IMG/VR virus record: IMGVR_UViG_3300026097_000009
Span: 1-64,000 of that record
Length of the DNA stretch: 64,000 nt
Strand: one strand, 5' to 3'
Source: a virus
In this document: positions 1 to 16,430 of the stretch, in pieces
Numbering within the stretch: the first letter of the stretch is position 1
How the letters are laid out: each line of letters begins with the position of its first letter
Program-made: the position numbers and the translations under genes
Notes under the pieces: generated by a model
What the model was told of the DNA's origin: nothing
Database searches by the model: none
What the model saw: only the letters and a program-made list of their open reading frames with translations

Positions 1-354
1 TATCTGGCAGATGTCTGCGTGTCCGTTGATATGAAACAATAGGTTGACAAAATCTTCCTGCTCTAACAAATCCCATAGCGGCTCCTTATTCATAAGTTCT
101 ACAAGATGTTCTTCACTGCGAACTCCGTTGTATATACTTACATTTAAAAAGTCAAGTTTAAAGTAGTCTTTTTTATCTGCTTCTTTATGATCTAAAGAAC
201 ATAATCCGCTCAAAGGATCGTATGGAACTTTTTGCAGATAGACTCCAGTGTTATGCTTTTTGCTTTCACCGGCATCAATGCGCATTGCAGGAATATGTTT
301 AAATAACTTTAATGCCGTTTCTCTATCGGCAAAATCTATATCAATATCTGGCAC
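1..354 (-). CDS. Compact DnaE / DNA polymerase III alpha-like catalytic (palm) protein, 3' end outside the window
   Basis: Not in the ORF track. Manual translation from GTG at 354: MPDIDIDFADRETALKLFKHIPAMRIDAGESKKHNTGVYLQKVPYDPLSGLCSLDHKEADKKDYFKLDFLNVSIYNGV..., open to base 1. PDIDIDF, KHxxGV and FKLDFL match the family-C polymerase motifs PDIDxDF, HAxG and KxDFLGL. Confidence 0.8.
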   Translation of the reverse strand, partial: MPDIDIDFADRETALKLFKHIPAMRIDAGESKKHNTGVYLQKVPYDPLSGLCSLDHKEADKKDYFKLDFLNVSIYNGVRSEEHLVELMNKEPLWDLLEQEDFVNLLFHINGHADICQI

Positions 355-838
355 GACTTATCTTCTTTGATTTTTTAGAGGCTCGATCCCATTTTAATTT
401 CGAAACTCGATCTTTATATGTTATCCCATATAAATGATCCCATTCGTGCAAATAACACCTTGCACTGTAATCAGTAATTTTAGTAACTTGTTTTTCTAAG
501 TTTTCGTCATAAAATTCTGCTAAAATTTCTTTTGGCCTTTTTATTTTAACATAGATATCTGGAAAACTCAAGCATCCTTCATAATCATCTAGTTGTTCCT
601 CTGTATACTGTAACACAGTAGGATTAATGCAAATAGTAGAATTTTCTTTATTCATCCCCATAACAAACAGTTTGAGATCGATTCCAACCTGGCAAGCACT
701 CAAACCGATTCCGTTACTTGCTAACATGAGCTCGACCATCTGTTCTTTTAGTTCTTTTGGGTCCATTTGAGGATTTTCTAAATCAAAATCCTCCAATTCT
801 TTGTTAAGAATAGAACTCGGATAATAAACTAAGTTCAT
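341..838 (-). CDS. def: Peptide deformylase
   Basis: All three PDF motifs are present: GIGLSACQVG, EGCLS, HEWDH. Confidence 0.95.
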   Translation of the reverse strand: MNLVYYPSSILNKELEDFDLENPQMDPKELKEQMVELMLASNGIGLSACQVGIDLKLFVMGMNKENSTICINPTVLQYTEEQLDDYEGCLSFPDIYVKIKRPKEILAEFYDENLEKQVTKITDYSARCYLHEWDHLYGITYKDRVSKLKWDRASKKSKKISRARY

Positions 839-1254
839 AGTTTGCCTTCTGCTCTTAGTTGTGCTCTAATTTTTGTAGCACTTATGTCATGCATCTCTTC
901 ACCAAGATCGTGTTGTGTAAACGTGTAGCCAACCCCGCGACCATAACTAATATCAACTATATTAGGTACTTTCATGATAACATAATCTTTGTCACAGGTA
1001 AAGTCATGTTCTGCTAAACCTGCTTTAATATTTTCAACAACTGTATCATATTCAAACGGGTTATCTGTTTGTGCCGCTGTTCGGCCACCCCCTGCATCTT
1101 CTCCTACAATGCCTCCCACATCTCGAATCATAATACACACTTGTCCAGTTTCTGCAAATGCCTTTTTAAACAGAGCTGTATGTCCGTCGTGCCATGGCTG
1201 CCAACGTCCTAGCATCTGCGTAGTAGGCTTTTTCCAATCAAATGTCTTTTCCAT
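835..1254 (-). CDS. HxGH nucleotidyltransferase (cytidylyltransferase-like; candidate minimal ATP sulfurylase)
   Basis: GRWQPWHDGH, YGRGVGY and C-terminal ISATKIR. Start moved to ATG 1254 (MEKTFDW), which follows a GGAG site. Confidence 0.7.
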   Translation of the reverse strand: MEKTFDWKKPTTQMLGRWQPWHDGHTALFKKAFAETGQVCIMIRDVGGIVGEDAGGGRTAAQTDNPFEYDTVVENIKAGLAEHDFTCDKDYVIMKVPNIVDISYGRGVGYTFTQHDLGEEMHDISATKIRAQLRAEGKL

Positions 1255-1465
1255 CTTTAACTCCAAACTTAATATATTTGTACCATAGACGTTCATGTCC
1301 GTAGTATAGAATAAATTTAATAATCAAATCTGCTACAAATACTCCCCCTATTGCCTTGGGCGGTAAGCCGAATGCAAATGCTATTAAAGCGGTTGTAATA
1401 CTTGCTATTACCCGCCATGTAATTGCTTTGGCTAAATGTCTCTTTTTTTCAACTGCTCCGCTCAT
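1238..1465 (-). CDS. DUF2061-like small membrane protein
   Basis: KRHLAKAITWRVIAS...YYGHERLW signature with two hydrophobic helices. Confidence 0.8.
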   Translation of the reverse strand: MSGAVEKKRHLAKAITWRVIASITTALIAFAFGLPPKAIGGVFVADLIIKFILYYGHERLWYKYIKFGVKDGKDI

Positions 1466-1881
1466 GCTATGGCTTCTTGTATTTGATTTCCGAGACTCAT
1501 TATTTCATCATCGGATAAATGTCTAACAACCTTAAAATGAACATGTCCTTTTGGTTCTTCAAATACCTTGTTCGTATCTTCGAATCTTCCTTCTTGTATG
1601 GTATCTACCCATACAATAATATCAGGTTTGAATAAATTTCTTGTAATTTCTGTCGGACAAACAAAATCACAAATCACTGTTCTTCCCTGATTTCTTTCGT
1701 AGTCTGCAATAGTTCTCATACGCATTGCTTGACGTTGTCTTGCTTCTTGACTGAATTCCCAGTCGTTTGCCATTTCGCGAACACGATCTGCATTATACCA
1801 TGCACAGTTTAAGTGTTTCTGCAATCTTTCTGCAAGCCATGTTTTACCTGACCCCGGCAGCCCCATAATTAATATTTTCAT
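1462..1881 (-). CDS. cysC: Adenylyl-sulfate (APS) kinase-like protein, short form
   Basis: P-loop GLPGSGKT, NADRVR, FSQEARQRQ and ICDFVCP, as in CysC-like kinases. Confidence 0.75.
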   Translation of the reverse strand: MKILIMGLPGSGKTWLAERLQKHLNCAWYNADRVREMANDWEFSQEARQRQAMRMRTIADYERNQGRTVICDFVCPTEITRNLFKPDIIVWVDTIQEGRFEDTNKVFEEPKGHVHFKVVRHLSDDEIMSLGNQIQEAIA

Positions 1882-2450
1882 CGTTTAACCTTTGTAAGAC
1901 TATCTGTTTTTAGTGCTGTACTTATTGCTTTTTTAGCATCGAATTTTACTTCTTGGAATAGATACATTTGTAATTCATTAATTTTTTGTACATTTTTACT
2001 TTTCATATCGTAGAAGTCCATTACAAATACATCCTCCACGGTTTTCCATTTTTCGATAATATTTCTAAAATTTGGATCCAAGTTTTTAGATTCTTTAGAT
2101 TTTCCAGCAATTCTAGCCCATGCGTCCCAACTTGCTTTGCATGTTTTTAAGTCGCGTAGCAACAAGATTTTTTTAAATCCAGATAATATCCGTTCCGATT
2201 TTGTACTATACTCTAGGTGAGAAACCGCAAACGAATTTTCTGATATCAAATTAACACTTTCGGATAACGGTGTTCTTACTTTAAGTTCTTTTAAATTTTT
2301 TCTTGAATAGTTTAAATCATCTAGATCTAGCTGAGTATAGTTATTTCCACGAATGTGCATACCTGTAAAATGCAAATCTAACTGCTGTAATAAATTTGCA
2401 CAAAGATATGTGCCTGCTTTAGGTTGACTAATAACAATAGTCTGCATCAA
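1878..2450 (-). CDS. Sulfotransferase-like protein
   Basis: N-terminal ISQPKAGTYL (5'-PSB loop) and LLLRD (3'-PB-like); lies directly upstream of the APS kinase. Confidence 0.65.
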   Translation of the reverse strand: MMQTIVISQPKAGTYLCANLLQQLDLHFTGMHIRGNNYTQLDLDDLNYSRKNLKELKVRTPLSESVNLISENSFAVSHLEYSTKSERILSGFKKILLLRDLKTCKASWDAWARIAGKSKESKNLDPNFRNIIEKWKTVEDVFVMDFYDMKSKNVQKINELQMYLFQEVKFDAKKAISTALKTDSLTKVKR

Positions 2451-2662
2451 TGAATTTCTGTTGTTTCGAACAATAACAAAGGTAGGGTATCAGCTAATTG
2501 TTGAGCATACTCCTCGATTTCCTCATCGTCCTCGAACCCAGAAAATTTTACATAAATTGATTTGTCGTTTAACCCTGTTAAAACTTCAATTTCAATATCG
2601 TCGCGTGTAGAAATATAAGTTTCGTTTTCTAACAGTTCATCACCGGTTCTACTTTCAGTCAT
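2447..2662 (-). CDS. Hypothetical acidic protein
   Basis: 71-aa ORF with ATGA-type overlaps to both neighbours. Confidence 0.6.
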   Translation of the reverse strand: MTESRTGDELLENETYISTRDDIEIEVLTGLNDKSIYVKFSGFEDDEEIEEYAQQLADTLPLLLFETTEIH

Positions 2663-3342
2663 AAAATTTTAGCCTCTTTCACTATATCCTTCGTCAGTTG
2701 CTGGTCAGCTGGTAATTTTTTAAATCTAGTCAACCAGTATTGCGGATCAACGAACGGTCCTATTATTTCTAATTGCTCGTCGTTCATGTTTTGCAACATT
2801 TCTTTTCCGCTCTTTGTATTTAATATTAACCAAGGAGAAATCAAACCTTCTCTAATATCATGAACTGCTCTATTTAGATTTACATACTTGAAATAATGTT
2901 CCCAAGGTGCGTTGTTCTTATCGGACCAATCCATCATAGTTTTAATAGATCGCTGTATTGCACCGTCGGCTGGCTCACTGCGTATTAACTCTAGTAAGTA
3001 CGTTTCATACAATTCATCTCTACACCAGTGATCCAGTTTAACTCCACCAGTAAGAACAAAATTAATGAACTTTTCTGGATATATGGGATTTGTGTTAACC
3101 AAAAAGCTTCCAAATTTAATAAATGCTGTATAGTACGGGCTTGAAACAAAATCATCAAATGTTTTTTTCTTTCCTGCTTTTTGATTTATCTCATAAAATT
3201 TTTGATAAACTATCATGCCGTTTTGCACATGTTTTTCATTTTTGGCAAGGTATCGCCTCTTTTTTTCACAGACATGCACTGCCAAAGTTTTTTCTTTGAC
3301 AAAAGTTTTTCCACAATAATCACACTTATAACTTTGCGTCAT
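2659..3342 (-). CDS. Zinc-finger-containing phage protein
   Basis: N-terminal CDYCGKTF...HVC zinc-finger pattern; 227 aa. Confidence 0.6.
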   Translation of the reverse strand: MTQSYKCDYCGKTFVKEKTLAVHVCEKKRRYLAKNEKHVQNGMIVYQKFYEINQKAGKKKTFDDFVSSPYYTAFIKFGSFLVNTNPIYPEKFINFVLTGGVKLDHWCRDELYETYLLELIRSEPADGAIQRSIKTMMDWSDKNNAPWEHYFKYVNLNRAVHDIREGLISPWLILNTKSGKEMLQNMNDEQLEIIGPFVDPQYWLTRFKKLPADQQLTKDIVKEAKIL

Positions 3343-3790
3343 TGATTTCTTTTTTCGACCAACCGAGTTCTTCTAGATATTCTTTGATTTCTTTTGTTGA
3401 ATTAAGTTCAGCCATTAATTCAATATCTTCAATTTTTTTATCTGGGAATATTTTTAACAAAAAATCTACTTTTTTGTTTTTTTCTTTTTTAACTTTTATC
3501 CATTTGTGAAAATATATATTCCCAGAATCGTCACTGCAACTACATGCTATTTGCCAAAGAAGTTTAGGGTGTTTGTTAAGCAGTTCGAAAAGATTTTTAT
3601 TGAATCTTATATTCGTGTTTAAAAGCCAGTGTTCCTGTAACTCTCTACTTCCTTCGACACTGCTTAAATATCTGTTGAGTGTGAAGTAGACCACACTCTT
3701 TTTCTGTTCATCTGTAAGATCGTCCCATACACCTTTTGCGTTAAGGTCGATTGCTCCGAGTATTTCTTTAAGGGTTAGTTTTTCTGTCAT
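3326..3790 (-). CDS. Putative clamp-loader small subunit (T4 gp62-like)
   Basis: Size and pattern (FTLNRYLS...LLWQ...FHKWIK...KEIKEYL) resemble gp62 of T4-like phages; recognised by eye only. Confidence 0.45.
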   Translation of the reverse strand: MTEKLTLKEILGAIDLNAKGVWDDLTDEQKKSVVYFTLNRYLSSVEGSRELQEHWLLNTNIRFNKNLFELLNKHPKLLWQIACSCSDDSGNIYFHKWIKVKKEKNKKVDFLLKIFPDKKIEDIELMAELNSTKEIKEYLEELGWSKKEINDAKL

Positions 3791-4034
3791 CTCTTATTAG
3801 TATATAGGTTGTGTATAATTTGTCAAGTTGACTTTTTAATGTTGGATTATTTTTTGCTAATTCAAAAATTTCTTTCATTTCGCCAAGTTGAATTTCTCCT
3901 TTAGCTCTTGCAACAGCCGAAGGGTCACCTCCTGCAATCCATGGATCAATATCAGGACGATTAGGATAATCGCACCATACAACTTTGTCCTCCATGCGGT
4001 AACGAATTTCTTCTCCGGGAATTAGATCACCCAT
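3768..4034 (-). CDS. Hypothetical protein
   Basis: 88-aa ORF overlapping both neighbours in the operon. Confidence 0.55.
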   Translation of the reverse strand: MGDLIPGEEIRYRMEDKVVWCDYPNRPDIDPWIAGGDPSAVARAKGEIQLGEMKEIFELAKNNPTLKSQLDKLYTTYILIRDDRKTNP

Positions 4035-4641
4035 TGTGCTCTACCGAGTTATCACTTAAAAAATTAAAACTAAGACTTATTCTTCTATGATCTGTAGGGT
4101 TTTCTACCACCTTGTGTTCTAGCCATCCTGGGAACAAGATCAACTGTCCTTCTTTGGGCTTTACACCTATTTGTTCCTTACACTGTCCTCCCATACTTGC
4201 GGGAAACAATCCTAGGGAGGCAAACGGGATAGGATTTTTAAAAACGATTTCACCATCATTGCCGTTGGACTTATAATGATACACACCGCTTATAATAGAG
4301 TCGCAATGTTGATGAAATGTTTGTCCTTCGCCTTTGTCTGTAATATTGATCCAACTTTGATTCATAAAAATATTTCTTCTTATTATTGGTTGACATTCTG
4401 CATAGTACTTAGAAGCATTTTTACATATAAACTTGTAAAGATTTGAAAGATTGAAATCAGTAATGCTGTTCATTCTAGTTTCGATATTAGTCTTTACTTT
4501 GTCACTCCACCTATCAGGATTAGCAAATTGATCTTGCATAATTGTTCCCCAGTTTTTAGATATTTCATGATCTATAGAAGTTCTTTCTAACTGAGAAGCT
4601 TGAACAATATATATAGGCAACGAGAATACGGTACTTAACAT
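4027..4641 (-). CDS. 2OG-Fe(II) oxygenase (TIGR02466-like)
   Basis: SWIN...HQH...ISGVYHY...LILFPGWLEHKV...RISLSFN. Confidence 0.85.
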   Translation of the reverse strand: MLSTVFSLPIYIVQASQLERTSIDHEISKNWGTIMQDQFANPDRWSDKVKTNIETRMNSITDFNLSNLYKFICKNASKYYAECQPIIRRNIFMNQSWINITDKGEGQTFHQHCDSIISGVYHYKSNGNDGEIVFKNPIPFASLGLFPASMGGQCKEQIGVKPKEGQLILFPGWLEHKVVENPTDHRRISLSFNFLSDNSVEHNG

Positions 4642-5147
4642 TAGAACAACTTATCCAATTGTATAATTTCACTTTGTCTAGATATTTCTTTAACAAAGAA
4701 TGCACAATACGGACTAGGATCGTTGTTTAGTGGTACAGATAAAATTTGTCCGTTTTTCATCTTTGGAAAATACCATCTCACATCTTGATAGATATTTACA
4801 ATCTTAATTGGCAAATATTCACAATGATATCCGTTTATAGGATTAATACTCAGTGCAGTAAATCCTCGTTCATTAATTGATGTTAACGGCAAAACTTCAG
4901 GATCTAATCCGCTATCTGCATCAGCTACAACCATACTCCAGTCTAGAGGCATTTGAACTTCACTTCCTGCAATGTCTAACACAATAGCAGGACTGTTAAA
5001 ACTTTCTAAAAAAACAAGAGGCATGAAATAAAAATCAGGATCTGACGGATCGCTGTTGTCTAAAACACTAAACCTTGTGTCATCATCAATTTCTTCTGGC
5101 AATTCGTTTAAATCGAATGCACGATTATCTAAAGTGAGAATTTTCAT
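4641..5147 (-). CDS. Conserved-looking phage protein, possibly a degenerate Hint-like beta fold
   Basis: 168-aa beta-rich ORF coupled to uvsW; the fold is inferred from strand pattern only. Confidence 0.5.
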   Translation of the reverse strand: MKILTLDNRAFDLNELPEEIDDDTRFSVLDNSDPSDPDFYFMPLVFLESFNSPAIVLDIAGSEVQMPLDWSMVVADADSGLDPEVLPLTSINERGFTALSINPINGYHCEYLPIKIVNIYQDVRWYFPKMKNGQILSVPLNNDPSPYCAFFVKEISRQSEIIQLDKLF

Positions 5148-6601
5148 ATATCAACCTTTTCAATAGTAAACGGGTAATTTGCTTCTTTGTAATACTTTTT
5201 ACGTTCTGTGAGATGTCGTTTAGCATATTTACAAGTAGAAGTAATATCCCAAATTTGGACAAAATCCTTGTCCTCTGCTTTTCGGATTCCTCGTCCGATA
5301 CTCTGTATTACCCTTACAAAACTCTTTCCAGGTTCGATAAGAACAAGATTAAAAATGCGGGGTATGTTAATTCCCACTGCGGCAACACCATAGGTTGCAA
5401 TAATAACTTTGTTTTTTGAAGTTTGAATTTCATCGTATTCGTCCTTTCTGTTTTCTAATTTAGTGCTTCCGTTAATGAACACACTATCTGATAGTCTTTC
5501 CTCAAGCATAGTCCCAGTGTTTACTCTGTTAATTAACACCAGTGTATTACCGTCGTTTCGTATCGAATCGATCTTGTTAGCAATCCAATCAATACGATCT
5601 GGATCTTTCACTAAGAAATCATATTCTTCTGCATAACTTCTAAATGTTCGTACATCTTTTGTTTGTAATATTTTAATATCCAGTTTAGCAAGAATATCTT
5701 TTTGTTGCAAGTCGTGAGCGGAGATTCGATTAATAACAGGACCAATGCCGACAAGAATTCCTTGAAACTCCCACTGTTCTTTAGGTATAGTTCCTGTAAG
5801 TCCCCATCGCACAGGACAGTTTCCTAAATTTTGTGTTAACAATTTTTTAAGGACATCCGCTTTGGCTTGGTGTACTTCGTCTACTATAACTGCGCCAACT
5901 CCTTCTAAAAATTCTGCCAACGTTAATACTTCTTCGTAATCTTTTGATTTTTTATCTAGGATATTAAGTGATTGCCATGTACAGATAGTATGTGTCTTGC
6001 CTAGTTCTTTTCTGTCCCCGAAGTATACTCCTACATCTAATCCACAGTTCTTATAATCTTCTTCAGTTTGAACTACTAAGCTTTTGTTCGGAACAATGAC
6101 TATTGTACGCCCGAACTTTTCGCACATATGACTCAATGTTGCGGTTATGATCGTTTTACCAGCGCCGGTTGCTACTTCTTGCAAGCTCTGTGGGTTCTCA
6201 GAAAAGTTTTTTATAACATCAACTTGATGATCTCGCAGAACAATAGGTTCGCCCGCCATTGGATGTCCTTTAGGCCAGCACACACCTTTATTTTTCCAAT
6301 AGTCTTCGTCAACTGCCTCAAATGTTAAGTCGTGTTGTTCTCTAAGATCTACTAACTCAATTTCATATCGATCTTTTTCAATTATCGGAAGTATAACATC
6401 TAAATGACAAAGATACCCAGTTCCGCCGATTCCGAAAAAACTCACAGTGCCGTCCCACCGTCCTAATTTAAATGCAGGCATATGACGAGCATACGGTAAT
6501 TCATACTTTAATTTGTTAGCAAGCTTTCGTCTAGTCTCAATGGCTAACCCTTCGACCTTTACGTTGACTTCGTCTTTAATAATTAATTTACAAGTTGACA
6601 A
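5144..6601 (-). CDS. uvsW: UvsW-like superfamily 2 DNA helicase
   Basis: ATGAGKT, DEVH, GLTGT, QSIGRGIR. Likely start is TTG at 6601, downstream of GGAGAG. Confidence 0.92.
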   Translation of the reverse strand: MSTCKLIIKDEVNVKVEGLAIETRRKLANKLKYELPYARHMPAFKLGRWDGTVSFFGIGGTGYLCHLDVILPIIEKDRYEIELVDLREQHDLTFEAVDEDYWKNKGVCWPKGHPMAGEPIVLRDHQVDVIKNFSENPQSLQEVATGAGKTIITATLSHMCEKFGRTIVIVPNKSLVVQTEEDYKNCGLDVGVYFGDRKELGKTHTICTWQSLNILDKKSKDYEEVLTLAEFLEGVGAVIVDEVHQAKADVLKKLLTQNLGNCPVRWGLTGTIPKEQWEFQGILVGIGPVINRISAHDLQQKDILAKLDIKILQTKDVRTFRSYAEEYDFLVKDPDRIDWIANKIDSIRNDGNTLVLINRVNTGTMLEERLSDSVFINGSTKLENRKDEYDEIQTSKNKVIIATYGVAAVGINIPRIFNLVLIEPGKSFVRVIQSIGRGIRKAEDKDFVQIWDITSTCKYAKRHLTERKKYYKEANYPFTIEKVDI

Positions 6602-7754
6602 TTTTGTGATCTCTCCATGTTGTCGGCTCATATTCCGCTATATGTACAACAATTGGCATGTGCCTTACCATTTGTTTTATAACAGCGTTTCTGTTTGGTA
6701 TCAAGTCGTTAGTGGAAAAAATATCAATGCTTATGTTTTTAGTGAAAATCCATTTTGGTATTTTATTTTTAAAAATTAAAACGTCTCCCTCTTCTATTTT
6801 TCCGCCTAACTCGTTTTCTTTAATCCACTCATTTATAGAACTATCTGCATTTTCTCTAAACCCTATTTTAATTTTTTTTGTAAAATTTGTATTCAATGAG
6901 ATATTATAAAACGTTTTCAACCATTTCAGAATGTGCTCGTCATCATATAACACAATAACAGCTTTGTTGTTAACGTGTTCAACCAGCTCGAAATATCTTA
7001 CCAGTTCGTTGATGTAGAACTGGTTAGTATCCGATGCAGTAAGTACAGAGAACATATCTTTTGAATTATTATTTAATTGTACTATACCCATAGTTTTAAG
7101 TAAAATTAAATTATTTTTTAATGAACTTGTTTTATTTTCGTTATAAAAATTATGGACATCTTCGTTACAGTTTTTTAAAATAATTTCACAATCGTCGACT
7201 ATAAATCCAGGGTATAGCGATTCTTCTTGGTTTAAAATTTCTTCATATTCTGCAACTAAATTTTCAAAACTAATATCAATCTCAAATTCGTTAGTCCTGC
7301 AAAACTCCTGAAAGTCCAATAGATTTATTTCATAAGGATTAAGAACGTTTATCTTTCTGTCTTTATCCCACGAATTTTGAAAATAATGCAAAGAATTTTT
7401 TAATAAAGTTTCAACAGTCTGTTTAAAATTAAAAGGGCACTTTAGACATATAACCGGACCGTCTTCGGTTTCTTCTACAAATACTTTTTTTGAATAATCT
7501 ATAGTTCTAAATTCATATTTCCATACAGCATTTTCTAGTAAATCATCAACGGTATATTTGTTCAAAGAACTTACGTCTTTATATTTTTCAATTAAACGAA
7601 TTACAAAGTTAGCTTGTTTTTCAGTAAGCTGATTATTAGAAGATATAATTCTATAAAAATTTAATATTGCATTCTGTTCGGTGCGAGGCCAGAATCTTAT
7701 ATCATGCTTTACTGCATCATAAAATTTTAGAAAAATATCTTCGAAATAGATCAT
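6588..7754 (-). CDS. Hypothetical protein upstream of uvsW
   Basis: 388-aa ORF preceded by a sigma70-like promoter. Confidence 0.65.
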   Translation of the reverse strand: MIYFEDIFLKFYDAVKHDIRFWPRTEQNAILNFYRIISSNNQLTEKQANFVIRLIEKYKDVSSLNKYTVDDLLENAVWKYEFRTIDYSKKVFVEETEDGPVICLKCPFNFKQTVETLLKNSLHYFQNSWDKDRKINVLNPYEINLLDFQEFCRTNEFEIDISFENLVAEYEEILNQEESLYPGFIVDDCEIILKNCNEDVHNFYNENKTSSLKNNLILLKTMGIVQLNNNSKDMFSVLTASDTNQFYINELVRYFELVEHVNNKAVIVLYDDEHILKWLKTFYNISLNTNFTKKIKIGFRENADSSINEWIKENELGGKIEEGDVLIFKNKIPKWIFTKNISIDIFSTNDLIPNRNAVIKQMVRHMPIVVHIAEYEPTTWRDHKIVNL

Positions 7755-8644: not shown

Positions 8645-10837
<2,193 letters not shown>

Positions 10838-10849
<12 letters not shown>

Positions 10850-11560
10850 CGAAGCAAAATTTTCTTTATTACCCTTTGCTTTATAATGATTTAAATAAGG
10901 ACCTATAACTGTTCTTTTGAATGGTGTTTTATATCCTTTAGTTAGCCCCTCGCATAAATCTAAACCCTTTGCACCGGAGCGTATAAAGGTATCACCATAC
11001 ACATCGTTATCATACTTTCTTCTTAGACCGTCAAATTCAATGTTATCGTATCTTCGTCTGTATTCACTCGAAAACCATTTGAATTTTTTATGATTGGTAT
11101 TAACAGCAAAAAACCCAGTTTCAGGCACGAACCAATTTCCGCTGTTTCCACCCTTGTCTGTAACATATGTTACTCCTAGGTGTGTGCTTAAGACATCGTC
11201 TGGTAAAACACTTTCTAATATTTCTTTTGGAAAATACTGCTTGGTTAAAACATCTGCATCTAACCAAATTATTCTGTCAGCTGTAGAATTTTCCATTGCA
11301 TGAATAAAACTGTATGCTTTTTTAGAAAACTTTCGTTCATTTCCGCCTACCTTCTTTTCATGCTGGAAATCAAAATATTTTTTATCTAGGTTATCAAAAC
11401 TTATTTGCTTAATTCTGTTATCCTCTGGAATAGAAAATTCTTCAACATAACAGGTTATATTAAGATCTTCGGGCCAATACATTAAGAATGTGTCGACACA
11501 ATGTTTGCCTATAAGGTCATAGTACTTTTTATTAAAACTGGTAATTACTTCAATCTTCAT
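10838..11560 (-). CDS. GT-A fold glycosyltransferase, paralogue of 10028..10849
   Basis: KFSKKAY, WLDAD, ETGFF, NHYKA. Start moved to ATG 11560. Confidence 0.75.
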
Positions 11561-12492
11561 ACAAATTTTCTCATGTGATGCCAAGCTTCGCCTGCTTCGA
11601 TTTCTTCAAAACTCCAATGGAACATACACAGCCTTTCAACCCAAGACTGTCTGTCAGATAATATAGGTTGTTCGATTTTAGACAAATCTGTATTTGCAAT
11701 ATCTTTGGCTTGGCTTTTTTCTGGATCTGTTAAAAATACCGGATACCCTTCAATGGCGGCACCCACGGCTGGACTAGAATTATGATTTACTACAGCCCAA
11801 CATCTTTTTAAATCTTCGTTAAATCCTGCTCCTGGTTTAGACACAGTTACGTTTTTTGGATTTATTAAACTTTTAACAAGATTATTAGGAGCCAAGTATC
11901 TTAGTGCGCCTTTGTCTCCCGGATGTCCTCTAACTACAATAGGTCTGTCGCTGAATCTTCTAATCTCAGTTATTGTTTTATTCAGCCATTGTATAACATC
12001 TAAGCCGCCCATACTCCAGCCGCCATTTCTCTGCAAGCAGATCAAAATGTGATTTCCGTTCTTTCTGTAATCTTTAAGTTCTAAATTAAGATTCTTAGAT
12101 ATTTTTTTCCATCTTATAGGATCTATATCGCCGTCACAATATTCTCCTGTGTTAGGAAATATTCCGTCAAAACTGTATCTCAAGTAGTCCAAGGGATTTT
12201 TTGTGTCTTTATAGAGGAATAAATTTGAGTCAGCTAACAGAACTCTGTTGTTATTATTTTTTTGAAAATCGATAATATCTCTTCTAAATTTTAAATGAGG
12301 AGAAGTTTTACCATTTTCATGCACCCATCCAACACTAGATCCTACATCCGCCGGAATTAAATTTTTCCCGTTATGAAGTATAGAAGTATCCCCTACAGCC
12401 TGCACTCCCTTGTGAAGTTTTTTTAATATGTCACCTTTTTGTATATTTTTATTGTTAGGTGGCAAGCATTGAAGATAATGCACTACTTTCAT
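11557..12492 (-). CDS. KpsC/KpsS-like glycosyltransferase
   Basis: ILICLQ, IVVRGHPGD, VVNHNSSPAVGAAIEGYPV. Confidence 0.7.
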   Translation of the reverse strand: MKVVHYLQCLPPNNKNIQKGDILKKLHKGVQAVGDTSILHNGKNLIPADVGSSVGWVHENGKTSPHLKFRRDIIDFQKNNNNRVLLADSNLFLYKDTKNPLDYLRYSFDGIFPNTGEYCDGDIDPIRWKKISKNLNLELKDYRKNGNHILICLQRNGGWSMGGLDVIQWLNKTITEIRRFSDRPIVVRGHPGDKGALRYLAPNNLVKSLINPKNVTVSKPGAGFNEDLKRCWAVVNHNSSPAVGAAIEGYPVFLTDPEKSQAKDIANTDLSKIEQPILSDRQSWVERLCMFHWSFEEIEAGEAWHHMRKFV

Positions 12493-13505
12493 TTTTTCTT
12501 GCCTTTTTCAGCTCGCAATATGTCTTGTGCTTTTTTGTGTCTAAGTTCATGGAATGCTACTTCCCAGATATGTTTCCAAACAGCTCCACTTTTAATTTCT
12601 GTTGTATCCCACTGATAGTACGCAAGATTAGATAACCACTGCTGTACTGTTTTAGGATCCTCTAGTAACACATTGTTAATTTCATCGCAGAAGTTTGTGG
12701 AAATATCCCAAGCAAAGTTTCCAGGATCAGTGGCGACAGTCGGAATACCTGCCATTATACTGTCGACAGCACTACCGCTGGTAAACGTAACCGAACAGTA
12801 AGCTCCGTTCAAATCCTCTTTGAGAGATTTTATACTGGGATCGCTGACTTCGATATTTTTTATGCCTTCCATATATAGTTCGGTAACAGTTTTAAAAAAT
12901 AAATCTGTTTCTCTCATAGGAGACAGTGGATGCGGACGTATTACAATTTTTTTGTTTGTTTGTTCTCGGATATCACCTATGCAGGTATTCAGCCAATTAT
13001 AGATATCTGTTCCTCGCAAACTGGCATCGCCCGGAAGTTGAAGCAACATTAAAATATGTCCTTGAGAATTTTGTTTCCAGCCGTCCCAACTTAGTTTAAG
13101 TTTGTTTAATAATCGATCGTTAGAATAGTTTAGTTTATTAGGTGTAAAGCTTCCTTGATTATTTAAAAATCCATTAACTCCAACTCTGTAATAATCATTA
13201 ACTTTATGTACACTTCTTCTTAATAAAGGAGTTTCAAACATAATGAAACATGGAGCATTTTGCACAATAGCATTTCTAACTAAATGATGGCCTTTTTCTC
13301 TCGGTTTCCAACTACCAAACATCACAGCAATATCACAATCACTATAAGAATCACCGATGTCAATTTCTTTATGCATTATTTCTGATTCTATATCAGTTAA
13401 TTCCCAATCTACGGTTGTTTCCTCAGGTATGCTTTCGTAAAATTTACATAAAAGCTGATGCTCGGCAAAGTCTCTTGTGCTTTCTAAAAACACTTTAATT
13501 TTCAT
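12489..13505 (-). CDS. KpsC/KpsS-like glycosyltransferase
   Basis: LLQLPGDASL, IVIRPHP, VTFTSGSAVDSIMAGIPT. Confidence 0.75.
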   Translation of the reverse strand: MKIKVFLESTRDFAEHQLLCKFYESIPEETTVDWELTDIESEIMHKEIDIGDSYSDCDIAVMFGSWKPREKGHHLVRNAIVQNAPCFIMFETPLLRRSVHKVNDYYRVGVNGFLNNQGSFTPNKLNYSNDRLLNKLKLSWDGWKQNSQGHILMLLQLPGDASLRGTDIYNWLNTCIGDIREQTNKKIVIRPHPLSPMRETDLFFKTVTELYMEGIKNIEVSDPSIKSLKEDLNGAYCSVTFTSGSAVDSIMAGIPTVATDPGNFAWDISTNFCDEINNVLLEDPKTVQQWLSNLAYYQWDTTEIKSGAVWKHIWEVAFHELRHKKAQDILRAEKGKKK

Positions 13506-14298
13506 TTAAAATTCTCCATGCTACTCCATTTCTTAATTCGTTGATATGAAATTGTCCATAGGCTAAATGGCAAGCCCATGCATATACTTTATCTTTATCG
13601 GGATAATAAGGGGTTTCTATTTGAGTTATGTCTTGTAATGCTACAGGCGAAGCCGCATTAGATGGTGCTAATGTAAATGCCGGTATTCCATACATAATTG
13701 CTTCTGTTGCGGCGACACTATTGTATGTTACAAGAGCAAACACTCCTTTGTCAAGAGCATCTTTCAGCGTATCGTTTTGTACACGATCTATTCGTTGAGG
13801 AGCACGTTGTCTTATTTCTATAGGACGATCTGTATGTTCTTTCAATGTTGCAACAGTCTCTTCAAGCCAGTCATCTAATTTAATACCATAGAATTTACAT
13901 GGCTTTTCGTCGGGCGCGGCAATTAAGATTTTTCTTCCTGTCTTTTTCCACGGATGCAGATCTATTTTATGTCGGCGCCATCTGTCATCTGGTCTTTCAA
14001 TAATTTCACCGTGTTGTAGATCGTTTTTAACAACCCTATGCCAATATTTCCAACCATGAGGATTGCTGGCTGATACTTGATTTCCGAAATAGCCGGTATC
14101 TACATAATAAAAATCTCTTCCGTAGATCCAACATTTACGCATTATTTTGTCTTTAAGAATACCCCTTAAAACGATGGGGTCATCAGTATCAGTAAATTCA
14201 AAATCGTCAGTGTTGATCACTCTGCCGCCACTTCCTATGGCAAACATATTAATGTATTGATCTTTGCCAAATTTACTCAAAAATATCCAATTGTTCAT
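13495..14298 (-). CDS. KpsC/KpsS-like glycosyltransferase
   Basis: TDRPIEIRQR, VTYNSVAATEAIMYGIPAF, LAYGQF; the HP motif is replaced. Confidence 0.65.
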   Translation of the reverse strand: MNNWIFLSKFGKDQYINMFAIGSGGRVINTDDFEFTDTDDPIVLRGILKDKIMRKCWIYGRDFYYVDTGYFGNQVSASNPHGWKYWHRVVKNDLQHGEIIERPDDRWRRHKIDLHPWKKTGRKILIAAPDEKPCKFYGIKLDDWLEETVATLKEHTDRPIEIRQRAPQRIDRVQNDTLKDALDKGVFALVTYNSVAATEAIMYGIPAFTLAPSNAASPVALQDITQIETPYYPDKDKVYAWACHLAYGQFHINELRNGVAWRILNEN

Positions 14299-14335
14299 TT
14301 AATATCCAATTTCTTTTTTTCTTCTATAATATCTA

Positions 14336-14983
14336 TTAGAAGTCATATCCAAATGCCTCTAAATCTTCTGAAAAGATTTTTTCTACAATGTTGCGTGTTT
14401 CAGACGTATAATACTCTTTGTAGTGTCCGTGGCGGCTACTGTTAATGAATGGCAAATTTTGATTGCAACCAAGAAATTTCTTTATATGATCAAACTCTGT
14501 GTTTATGTCTTCAATTTTTATTATTTTATCGCAATGCATGTCTAACCACTGACACATTGGCGTAATTCGTAAATACCATTTACGACCTTGTTCGTACGGT
14601 TGTTCTGTCAGATTTTGATCTTGAAGACCGATTACATATTGTTCAAAGCCTTGATTATACTGATCCACAATAGATTGATCTATCTCTGCATTAGTCATTT
14701 TTTTAACACGTTTTCCTTTGCTTCGTCGATACTGTCTTAGTTGTGCTCGTTGTCCAACAAAATTAAAAATGCTTACCAGTCTCGAAAAAGGATTCCTTAC
14801 AAAAGTAAATGTATAACCTAAATTAAATTGGCTATCAAGATAGCTCATTTTAGCATGTCTATTTCCGTCTCTGATAACTACTACATCTTTAAAATTCTCA
14901 ACAGCCCATTGTTCAAAACTGCTACCAGCAGTTTTCGGAATATGTATAAAAGTAGCCTTTTGTTCAGGAAAATGTAGAGCCAT
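14336..14983 (-). CDS. Sulfotransferase (carbohydrate sulfotransferase / Sulfotransfer_2-like)
   Basis: FIHIPKTAGSS and FVRNPFSRLVS PAPS-binding motifs; C-terminal DLEAFGY. Confidence 0.9.
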   Translation of the reverse strand: MALHFPEQKATFIHIPKTAGSSFEQWAVENFKDVVVIRDGNRHAKMSYLDSQFNLGYTFTFVRNPFSRLVSIFNFVGQRAQLRQYRRSKGKRVKKMTNAEIDQSIVDQYNQGFEQYVIGLQDQNLTEQPYEQGRKWYLRITPMCQWLDMHCDKIIKIEDINTEFDHIKKFLGCNQNLPFINSSRHGHYKEYYTSETRNIVEKIFSEDLEAFGYDF

Positions 14984-15663
14984 TAATCTAACCCGTGCTG
15001 TTGACAATATTCAGTTAAAATTCTTTCGCGATGCCATTCTGAACCCATCGGAGTATCTGCAAATTCGTGAAAGCTCGGGGTACCTAATGTATAGTGTAAT
15101 AATTTAGCATCTTGATTTTCACCGTATTCGTCTGGCAACCAATTCCATTCCGGAGGAAGTTCTCCAATGCGATTGTCGTCAATCCATTCAAATCTATGAA
15201 GATGCGCTCCCGAGGCATTTTGAATATATTCAGGAGTTAATTTTTTATTAGGATGATTTTGACAGTTCCAAAGAATAACACTTGACCAGTTCTTTCTAGG
15301 ATAATTTTCGTTTTTCGATCCAAGATATTTTTCAGTCATTTTGGTTTCATAATCGTGTTTCACTACTTGCACATCTTTAGTATGATCTCGCAATTCCCAT
15401 AACTTGCTAATATCATCTCGAATTATCATGTCGCCGTCGATGTATATAGCATGTCCTGTATGCCCCATTAAATGCGGAACAAGAAAACGACTGTAAATAA
15501 AATGATTACTACCGTCTGTGTGCTCTTCTTTATAATCATCGAATAAGTTTAACGCAAGGGGCATGATCTGAACAGGCTTAGACGAATGTCTAATAATACT
15601 GTTAACACAGGTGTGATATGCTATTGCTTCTCTAGGATCGTACCCTATAAAAATTGGAATCAT
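14983..15663 (-). CDS. GT8-like glycosyltransferase
   Basis: IFIGYDPRE, FIYSRFLVP, YIDGD, PRKNWSSV, WNWL, LHYTLGTP. Start moved to ATG 15663. Confidence 0.85.
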   Translation of the reverse strand: MIPIFIGYDPREAIAYHTCVNSIIRHSSKPVQIMPLALNLFDDYKEEHTDGSNHFIYSRFLVPHLMGHTGHAIYIDGDMIIRDDISKLWELRDHTKDVQVVKHDYETKMTEKYLGSKNENYPRKNWSSVILWNCQNHPNKKLTPEYIQNASGAHLHRFEWIDDNRIGELPPEWNWLPDEYGENQDAKLLHYTLGTPSFHEFADTPMGSEWHRERILTEYCQQHGLD

Positions 15664-16430
15664 CTTCTTTCTATATCCTCTTCTACGCACTCGGAGCCCC
15701 ATTGTATTTCTAAGATATGTGCTCTTTCGGTCCCTGGATTGCTGGCATGATGCCACACTTCTTTGCCTATTGTGTACGGAAAACTTTCTGGCTTGAGGTA
15801 AACTGATTCTGTTCTACGATCATATTCTGTTTCCATTTTAATCTCACCTTCGAGTATGATCCACTGCTCTGACCTTTTAAAGTGTTTTTGATCCGATAAT
15901 GCTTTTCCTGGTTCTACTACTAATTCTTTAACTTTATAACCTTTTTCTGGCTTGTCGTCAAGCACTCGCCAATAACCCCAAGTTCGTTCAGTCTTCTGTG
16001 TTTTCCACTCATCTAAAATCCAACTGCTGGAATTAGCCTTGTGCTCTCCGCCAATTCCAAATTCAAAAGATAATCTTTCATTGTCGATGCTCATTTCAGG
16101 TATGTTGGCATCATTTCTGTCACCGCCATTGGCGAAAATAACAGTATCGTCTGGATAGTTAATGAGTGTATCTCTTATGAAGTTTTTGCAACTCCCGTCT
16201 AAGTCGTAGTCATCTTCAAATGCAACTACTGCATCTACCATGCTTAATGCTCTTACTATTTCTGCTCGTTCTGATGACGGCATGAACGGCCTACCTTTTT
16301 TACGAGTTAGCCATGCGTCGGAGTTAACACCTACTACGATTTTATCTCCTAATGCCTTTGCTTCTTTTATGTAATTTATATGCCCTGAATGAATCGGGTC
16401 AAACCCGCCGCTTACTAATACAATTTTCAT
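15660..16430 (-). CDS. Cytidylyltransferase (TagD/RfaE-II-like) fused to a cupin (type II mannose-6-phosphate isomerase C-terminal-like)
   Basis: SGGFDPIHSGH, GVNSD..RKKG, FANGGDR, SSS; then RTWGYW..LSDQKHFKRSEQW..LEIQWG..EEDIER. Confidence 0.85.
   Translation of the reverse strand: MKIVLVSGGFDPIHSGHINYIKEAKALGDKIVVGVNSDAWLTRKKGRPFMPSSERAEIVRALSMVDAVVAFEDDYDLDGSCKNFIRDTLINYPDDTVIFANGGDRNDANIPEMSIDNERLSFEFGIGGEHKANSSSWILDEWKTQKTERTWGYWRVLDDKPEKGYKVKELVVEPGKALSDQKHFKRSEQWIILEGEIKMETEYDRRTESVYLKPESFPYTIGKEVWHHASNPGTERAHILEIQWGSECVEEDIERR

Follow-up and report, generated by a model that had tools for sequence, protein, structure and literature searches.

A kinase–nucleotidyltransferase gene pair of phages and marine bacteria as a candidate sulfate-activation module

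Can a phage activate sulfate with enzymes of its own? This question is raised by positions 835–2450 of a 64,000-nt window (the whole stretch of viral DNA analysed here, positions 1 to 64,000 of IMG/VR record IMGVR_UViG_3300026097_000009), where a small kinase resembling adenosine 5′-phosphosulfate (APS) kinases and a small nucleotidyltransferase of the HxGH superfamily are encoded next to a predicted sulfotransferase. The original prediction for this locus had tentatively taken four overlapping genes for a complete pathway from sulfate via APS to 3′-phosphoadenosine 5′-phosphosulfate (PAPS), with the ‘cytidylyltransferase-like’ protein as the ATP sulfurylase. Our analysis suggests that the kinase and the transferase probably form a two-enzyme sulfate-activation module making APS and PAPS, in which the transferase would be a non-canonical, minimal ATP sulfurylase. 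With slightly less assurance, we favour the broader view that this protein of 130–140 aa, which resembles nicotinamide mononucleotide adenylyltransferases (NMNATs), represents a third, unrecognised class of ATP sulfurylase besides Sat and CysDN. SAR11 and SAR86 would rely on it to convert sulfate or APS, the ‘AprBA without Sat’ gap in the sulfite oxidation of SAR11 would be closed by it, and marine phages would carry its gene as an auxiliary one to drive sulfation while they infect. The genes at the locus are the following:

341–838, minus strand: peptide deformylase (Pfam, 2.4e-40)
835–1254, minus strand: HxGH nucleotidyltransferase of 139 aa, candidate non-canonical ATP sulfurylase (sulfate adenylyltransferase), proposed from the open reading frame (ORF), the family residues and the context
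1238–1465, minus strand: small DUF2061 membrane protein of 75 aa, between kinase and transferase (Pfam PF09834, 8.2e-13)
1462–1881, minus strand: trimmed APS-kinase-like P-loop kinase of 139 aa without the lid segment (Pfam APS_kinase, 34.1 bits)
1878–2450, minus strand: putative small sulfotransferase of 190 aa (‘ST190’), predicted PAPS consumer (family motifs)

The conserved pair and its two proteins

All four ORFs of the proposed cassette were found on the minus strand and overlap-coupled by 4–17 nt; with the peptide deformylase gene included, the overlaps between successive genes from 341 to 2450 are 4, 17, 4 and 4 nt. In 80 related IMG/VR loci, to which all viral counts refer, the kinase gene lies directly upstream of the transferase gene in 79, whereas DUF2061 occurs in only 34, ST190 in five (on the other strand) and a sulfotransferase of the Sulfotransfer_2 type in two. 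The conserved unit is therefore the kinase–transferase pair and not a four-gene cassette. Moreover, 12 consecutive minus-strand genes between 341 and 6631 overlap by 1–23 nt; coupling of this kind extends over at least 12 genes, so that the cassette had arbitrary boundaries and was a cut-out of a longer run. The pairing itself was borne out by the survey of adjacency and fusion with a cysC-like gene: the two genes also adjoin each other in 76 of 80 bacterial loci, and fusions of an N-terminal kinase with a C-terminal transferase are common (PHROG 10255; P0139, P0149, P0241 and P0163), including in phages of Xylella, Xanthomonas and Stenotrophomonas.

In three further proteins (P0157, P0184 and P0256), fragments of chorismate synthase, DHQS or UCH are attached to the transferase. 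Together with P0125, they are probably assembly chimeras and were kept out of the evidence; the weak match of P0125 to the Sat family PF01747 (E = 0.0011) was rejected since this protein is a tandem-duplicated assembly artefact.

The affinity of the kinase to APS kinases is evident at several levels. Its Pfam APS_kinase match exceeds the cut-off of 21.1 bits but is partial (profile positions 5–92 of 152), and the equivalog score of TIGR00455 was not reached (26.1 versus 138.7 bits). A profile of the kinase family compared with the PDB matched APS kinases almost exclusively: 2yvu came first (1.3e-13), followed by ∼20 other APS-kinase chains, with PAPSS1, Arabidopsis APK1, Aquifex Sat-APSK and the Penicillium enzyme among the further matches. 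The AlphaFold2 (AF2) model of the kinase (model confidence, pLDDT, 94.6) aligned best in VIA-align with 2yvu (Z 16.9), Mycobacterium tuberculosis CysC (16.6) and PAPSS1 (16.0), and then with gluconate kinase (15.4). Residues D32, R35, F43, R48 and Q51 are invariant in the family and align with the residues that bind APS in APS kinases. Aligned with PAPSS1 by HMMER, the kinase keeps the second Asp of DGD and the Arg after it, the Phe and Ser of GFS, and the Arg of DR. Compared with CysC (PF01583), it retains the P-loop, the second Asp of DGD, the FS..R..R segment and the F...[FY]E.P tail, but it is 139 rather than ∼175–200 aa long, has Asn in place of the first Asp of DGD and FVCP in place of FISP, and lacks the lid, before which the alignments to PAPSS1 and 2yvu stop. 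Judged by sequence and model, the kinase is predicted to convert APS to PAPS.

The transferase contains the motifs quoted in the original prediction, namely RWQPWHDGH, YGRGVG and ISATKIRAQLRAEG. In the family alignment, G16, R17, Q19, H22, H25, P66, G105, R106, S125, T127 and R130 are invariant or near-invariant, and the same holds for the HxGH, ISxTxxR and GR motifs across the aligned phage and metagenomic representatives. At E ≤ 0.001, the family comprises at least 8000 clusters at 90% identity and 942 proteins among 50%-identity representatives; in the ESM Atlas, the only matches were ‘cytidyltransferase-like’ viral clusters. Scores against curated families were low throughout: 18.4 bits for the Pfam family CTP_transf_like, below its cut-off; 26.1 bits, compared to a cut-off of 127, for the top NCBIfam match, the archaeal NMNAT NF002243; and 18.7 compared to 181.2 for TIGR01527, so that the family-level NMNAT cut-off was not reached. 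The AF2 model (pLDDT 88) aligned in VIA-align with NadM (Z 10.1), phosphopantetheine adenylyltransferase (PPAT; 9.7), Methanocaldococcus jannaschii NMNAT (8.7; 25% identity) and residues 148–332 of Thermus Sat 1v47 (8.3; root-mean-square deviation 3.6 over 119 residues), the fold being common to the whole superfamily. With Foldseek, no PDB entry matched the model at E ≤ 1e-3, and the weaker hits were a mixture of PanC, NadM, PPAT, HldC and Sat. The transferase is thus a member of the HxGH superfamily whose nearest relatives are archaeal/NadM NMNATs and not the Sat family.

This placement bears on the reasoning by which the protein had been likened to Sat. The motifs QxRNPxHxxH and GRDHAG, which together with an N-terminal PUA-like domain characterise Sat, are not in the transferase, which has GRWQPWHDGH and YGRGVGY instead; only HxxH and the GR dipeptide are common to both. 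Its GRWQPWHxGH, NPF and ISATxIR motifs fit archaeal/NadM NMNATs better (1f9a, 4e-11; no match to a Sat catalytic domain). As the transferase is closest to NMNATs, the motif comparison with Sat does not discriminate between the families, and the argument drawn from it does not hold. The comparison of folds gave a divided answer: the superfamily fold of Sat is present, but NadM, PPAT and NMNAT score higher. A six-frame search of the whole 155-kb record with PF01747 found nothing at E ≤ 1. Cyanophage cytidylyltransferases carry the label TagD/glycerol-3-phosphate cytidylyltransferase (PMC9146016, PMC12801897); the transferase family was not matched in cultured cyanophages by tblastn, and we therefore regard the cyanophage protein as a different one.

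Among the closest known systems are the bifunctional PAPS synthases (metazoan PAPSS1/2, 1x6v; Aquifex Sat-APS kinase, 2gks), which likewise combine an APS kinase with an HxGH adenylyltransferase for consecutive steps. PAPSS1, whose kinase domain gave the Z score of 16.0 quoted above, has the same order of kinase and transferase as the natural fusions of the pair. The transferase half, however, measures 130–140 rather than ∼400 aa and lacks the PUA-like N-domain, QxRNP and GRDHAG, and the kinase has no lid. With Sat-type ATP sulfurylases (PF01747; Thermus 1v47, yeast 1j70), the transferase has in common the superfamily fold, HxxH and a C-terminal IS-x-T-x-x-R, but it is a third of their size, closer to NMNATs and not a member at the sequence level. 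The best relatives by both sequence and fold, the archaeal/NadM NMNATs (M. jannaschii 1f9a, Francisella NadM 2qjt), share GRxQPxHxGH, NPF and SxTxxR with it; they differ in that the transferase is ∼30 residues shorter, has a distinct conserved C-terminal half (VPNIxNIxYGRxVGY) and keeps the company of sulfur rather than NAD genes.

Gene neighbourhoods and phyletic patterns in marine bacteria

The pair is by no means confined to viruses. We found at least 580 loci of the module in species-representative genomes (53–67% identity, contigs up to 460 kb) of SAR11/Pelagibacteraceae, other marine Alphaproteobacteria, SAR86, SAR116, Marinoscillum and Marinimicrobia. The neighbourhoods of the 80 bacterial loci mentioned above were rich in sulfur genes. 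A CysQ-sized gene of the inositol-monophosphatase family lies directly upstream in 25 alphaproteobacterial loci (5.4e-52), and aprB (PF12139, 1.3e-31) and aprA are found near the module in Pelagibacteraceae and in one SAR116 genome. The distance to aprBA is ≤3 kb in ∼14 Pelagibacterales genomes, and the same proximity is seen in loci L099, L126 and L136. This resembles a sat-aprBA arrangement, in that the SAR11 transferase gene stands beside aprBA, where sat is located in some sulfur oxidisers.

Other genes were also observed in these regions. Two conserved proteins of 116 and 265 aa, possibly the membrane partner and without a Pfam match, flank aprBA in Pelagibacteraceae (L099 3834–7382 and 8402–11687; L126 8390–11882). 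The surroundings of the module there also include an EamA transporter and a class-III aminotransferase, perhaps the taurine-pyruvate aminotransferase.

Most SAR11 have been reported to lack ATP sulfurylase despite the presence of AprAB (10.1101/2022.09.23.509140), and in Pelagibacteraceae, whose sulfate pathways are incomplete, aprAB counts among the core genes and strong purifying selection acts on it (PMC12636525). In 101 Pelagibacterales genomes (≥85% complete), we detected Sat in only three and CysD in only five, the module in 82 (it was not found in 19) and AprB likewise in 82. Module and AprB coincided closely: 80 genomes had both, 17 neither, and two each had one only (Fisher p 3.5e-15, a test that, on this and the following genome set, ignores shared ancestry). 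The module was missing from all five genomes with CysD. Among the 101 genomes, G080, which has both module and AprB, is unpublished; without it, each is present in 81 of 100 genomes and both in 79.

A different pattern emerged for the order SAR86, of which we analysed 61 genomes (≥80% complete). AprB was absent from all of them, Sat and CysD were present in one genome each, the transferase in 28 and the sulfotransferase family Sulfotransfer_3 in 32. Transferase and Sulfotransfer_3 were found together in 26 genomes and both missing from 27, with two having the transferase only and six Sulfotransfer_3 only (Fisher p 2.6e-9); in other words, Sulfotransfer_3 is present in 26 of the 28 genomes with the transferase versus six of the 33 without. 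The single genome with CysD is one of the six with Sulfotransfer_3 only. For 10 genomes, Sulfotransfer_3, kinase and transferase are co-oriented within ∼1 kb, as exemplified by the two operons that we checked (L166 and L167), which encode a 370-aa Sulfotransfer_3 protein (157.8 bits), a 136-aa kinase and a transferase of 130–132 aa. Strong CysQ-like matches were present in 28 of 28 SAR86 genomes with the module versus 18 of 33 others, and in one of these genomes (G137) a CysQ-like gene lies downstream of the transferase. Our literature search turned up no paper that describes a non-canonical ATP sulfurylase or deals with SAR86 sulfotransferases.

In both operons, the SAR86 transferase gene is followed by a further ORF (L166 10–966, minus strand; L167 2665–3501, plus strand), which might point to the pathway that supplies the sulfotransferase with its acceptor. 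The ORF in L166 overlaps the transferase gene by 4 nt and encodes a D-isomer-specific 2-hydroxyacid dehydrogenase (6.6e-51).

Competing readings of the pair

We favour a split PAPS synthase for three reasons: the transferase is obligately paired with, or fused to, an APS-kinase homologue; the pair is repeatedly and independently adjacent to PAPS users of three sulfotransferase families, to the PAP phosphatase CysQ and to AprBA, which forms APS; and it is present in genomes without Sat or CysDN and absent from the few Pelagibacterales with CysD. Support for the small protein as the ATP-sulfurylase step thus comes from hundreds of genomes, bacterial and viral alike, through the order of genes, their fusions and their phyletic distribution, although the Sat motifs from which this role had been argued offer none. 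Mechanistically, the NMNAT-like HxGH scaffold would adenylylate sulfate (ATP + sulfate → APS + pyrophosphate), and the APS kinase, which lacks the lid and is fused or translationally coupled to the transferase, would turn APS into PAPS at once. Sulfate adenylylation is energetically unfavourable and needs to be pulled, which fits with tight coupling; the immediate phosphorylation of APS could provide this pull. In the phage, PAPS would serve the adjacent ST190 and the Sulfotransfer_2 enzyme of a glycan island (see below); in SAR86, the pair would supply sulfotransferases; and in SAR11, together with AprBA, it would convert sulfite-derived APS to ATP and sulfate and/or to PAPS.

Such an activity would matter beyond this phage, as SAR11 and SAR86 are the most abundant heterotrophs of the ocean. 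The route from sulfite to sulfate is formally incomplete in SAR11, where aprAB is core and ATP sulfurylase mostly lacking, and SAR86 encodes sulfotransferases without a known way to PAPS. If the assignment is correct, one tiny, widespread enzyme fills both gaps, an NMNAT-like scaffold has been recruited for sulfate activation, and the supply of a sulfate donor is a metabolic function carried by phages. Given a family of the size reported above, the enzyme would also change the annotation of marine sulfur cycling in metagenomes.

Several results weigh against a sulfate-activating transferase, in addition to the neglect of shared ancestry in the Fisher tests. The profile of the transferase family matches only NMNATs in the PDB, and these over its first ∼65–70 residues (1f9a, 4e-11; 2qjt, 4.4e-11), but no Sat catalytic domain, and PF01747 did not match the transferase by hmmscan at E ≤ 0.1. 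The fold search cannot tell NMNAT, PPAT and Sat apart (Z 10.1 to 8.3). Among five large related phage fragments, a sulfotransferase was seen in only two to three. The fused gene of the 55-kb Xylella-type phages lies among nucleotide-metabolism genes beside NADAR, and the only sulfotransferase signal nearby is a Sulfotransfer_4 match below the cut-off (E = 6e-4). Finally, five genomes contain the module and canonical Sat together (G003, G005, G057, G071 and G106).

That last observation also suits the best of the alternatives, which we nonetheless regard as unlikely: the pair would act on APS/PAPS chemistry without the transferase being a strict ATP sulfurylase. It might instead be an ADP sulfurylase (APS:phosphate adenylyltransferase), or activate another oxyanion or phospho-compound, the adenylate of which would then be 3′-phosphorylated by the kinase in the manner of PPAT and dephospho-CoA kinase. 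The genomic context links the pair with adenylylated sulfur compounds without singling out a substrate, PPAT is the second-best fold, and an archaeal PPAT is among the weak NCBIfam matches. This alternative is disfavoured by the SAR86 genomes with sulfotransferases, where searches for AprB, Sat and CysD revealed no other source of APS, and by the invariance of the kinase residues aligned with those that bind APS in APS kinases. Furthermore, the known ADP sulfurylase has another fold.

Less probable still is a function in NAD salvage similar to that of NadR, with the transferase as a true NMNAT and the kinase phosphorylating nicotinamide riboside (NR) or a related nucleoside. The NMNAT-type motifs and profile matches and the top folds (NadM and NMNAT) agree with it, homologues are labelled ‘nicotinamide mononucleotide adenylyltransferase’ in some sources, a NADAR gene neighbours the module in Xylella phages, and fusions of a kinase with an NMNAT are known (NadR). 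However, Nrk1 was matched only at E 0.13 (with a single kinase sequence), no NR kinase was among the PDB profile matches listed, and the NMNAT profiles align with the first ∼70 residues of the transferase only. The genes next to the module, or occurring with it, encode AprBA, CysQ-like proteins and sulfotransferases rather than enzymes of NAD metabolism. Canonical NadD was present in at least four of five module-bearing genomes tested, so that the module is dispensable to the cell as an NMNAT, and the 19 of 101 Pelagibacterales without the module indicate that it is not an essential one.

It seems very doubtful that only the kinase serves sulfur metabolism, using APS of the host, with the transferase as a regulator, a scaffold or an unrelated protein: the contextual evidence could come from the kinase alone, as the pair stays together, but the catalytic-type HxGH, ISxTxxR and GR motifs of the transferase are conserved, fusion and overlap-coupling point to consecutive steps, and the pair-bearing genomes have no known APS-making enzyme (SAR86) or APS-consuming enzyme (most SAR11).

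Sulfotransferases, DUF2061 and the wider phage locus

In this large marine phage, the demand for PAPS would come from two sulfotransferases of the window, one of them in a glycan island. The ST190 protein of the window had no match in the family libraries. Its family of 31 clusters is more informative: six of 22 members match Sulfotransfer_1 (PF00685; best 3.5e-9), one matches PF13469, and the best PDB profile match is a sulfotransferase, albeit a weak one (5tiz, E = 0.022). The family alignment shows no variation at K11, G13, T14, H78, R99 or S107, with a QPKAGTY loop and R99 and S107 standing eight residues apart; the K-G-T loop (5′-phosphosulfate-binding, 5′-PSB, PKxGT), the R...8...S pair (3′-phosphate-binding, 3′-PB) and the catalytic His are the PAPS-binding and catalytic motifs of sulfotransferases. 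On the strength of these sequence features, we predict that the 190-aa protein at 1878–2450 is a sulfotransferase. Its position beside the kinase is peculiar to this phage: it is missing there from a related locus with a 99% identical transferase (L003), and tblastn of ST190 against phages gave no match. An ST190 homologue does lie directly downstream of the transferase in a locus from a metagenome-assembled genome (L127; hhalign E 1.2e-52).

The second sulfotransferase is part of a glycan island, which is the likely acceptor pathway for sulfation:

9052–16430, mixed strands: glycan island around the second sulfotransferase (Pfam of its members)
9052–10038, plus strand: GDP-mannose 4,6-dehydratase (Pfam, 4.4e-118)
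14336–14983, minus strand: second sulfotransferase, Sulfotransfer_2 type (Pfam, 2.7e-15)
14983–15756, minus strand: family-8 (GT8) glycosyltransferase (Pfam, 5.4e-10)
15660–16430, minus strand: CTP_transf_like protein with a mannose-6-phosphate isomerase C-terminal domain (Pfam, 3.1e-15/1.6e-17)

The six-frame match of the second sulfotransferase spans 14342–14968 (56.3 bits) and corresponds to PHROG 3347, galactose-3-O-sulfotransferase. Both genes originally proposed as sulfotransferases are present in the window, but their linkage to the module is found in a minority of related phage fragments. With the protein at 15660–16430, the window encodes another HxGH protein, a canonical one (CTP_transf_like, 57 bits) fused to the isomerase domain.

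The DUF2061 protein is a variable accessory. It scored 49 bits in Pfam (cut-off 23.1) and 48.9 bits in the six-frame search, and DUF2061 occurs in two of the 80 bacterial loci, in addition to the 34 viral ones. One protein (P0168) is a DUF2061–transferase fusion; a search for longer DUF2061-containing fusion proteins yielded only tandem DUF2061 proteins, and the papers found on DUF2061 concern metal regulons, not sulfur.

Two cultured phages provided further observations. In Xylella phage Salvo (L085, 3647–5738), gp29, a NADAR gene (3.4e-25), a 109-aa ORF and the fused kinase–transferase gene gp32 are found together. The source of the Sulfotransfer_4 signal is gp29, a protein of 192 aa with PRSRS and R...8...S motifs; as a sulfotransferase it is unconfirmed, with an hhalign probability of 0.2% to the ST190 family and no PDB match. 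In the region of Ralstonia phage RSL1 that we inspected (L084, 3989–7744), no transferase homologue was detected by tblastn. Its ORF238 matches APS_kinase more strongly (57 bits) and extends ∼100 aa further at the C-terminus; the genes behind it encode a TET-associated glycosyltransferase (TAGT, 9.5e-12), an APH-like phosphotransferase and a nucleoside triphosphate (NTP) transferase, and the region may be a DNA-hypermodification or glycan island.

As to the phage itself, megablast of positions 1–5200 of the window against GenBank phages gave no match, and the transferase gene has an alternative upstream ATG at 1296. The overlapping run at 341–6631, a single long series of translationally coupled genes, leads from the peptide deformylase via a C2H2-like zinc-finger protein and a 2-oxoglutarate (2OG)-Fe(II) oxygenase to a UvsW-like helicase. 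The 155-kb record is a viral fragment with a CheckV estimate of 44% completeness, and the helicase is closest to those of jumbo phages of 280–490 kb (52–57% identity); from these two observations, the phage genome may be ∼350 kb in size. Several related fragments that bear the module are 108–167 kb long and are rated 31–65% complete.

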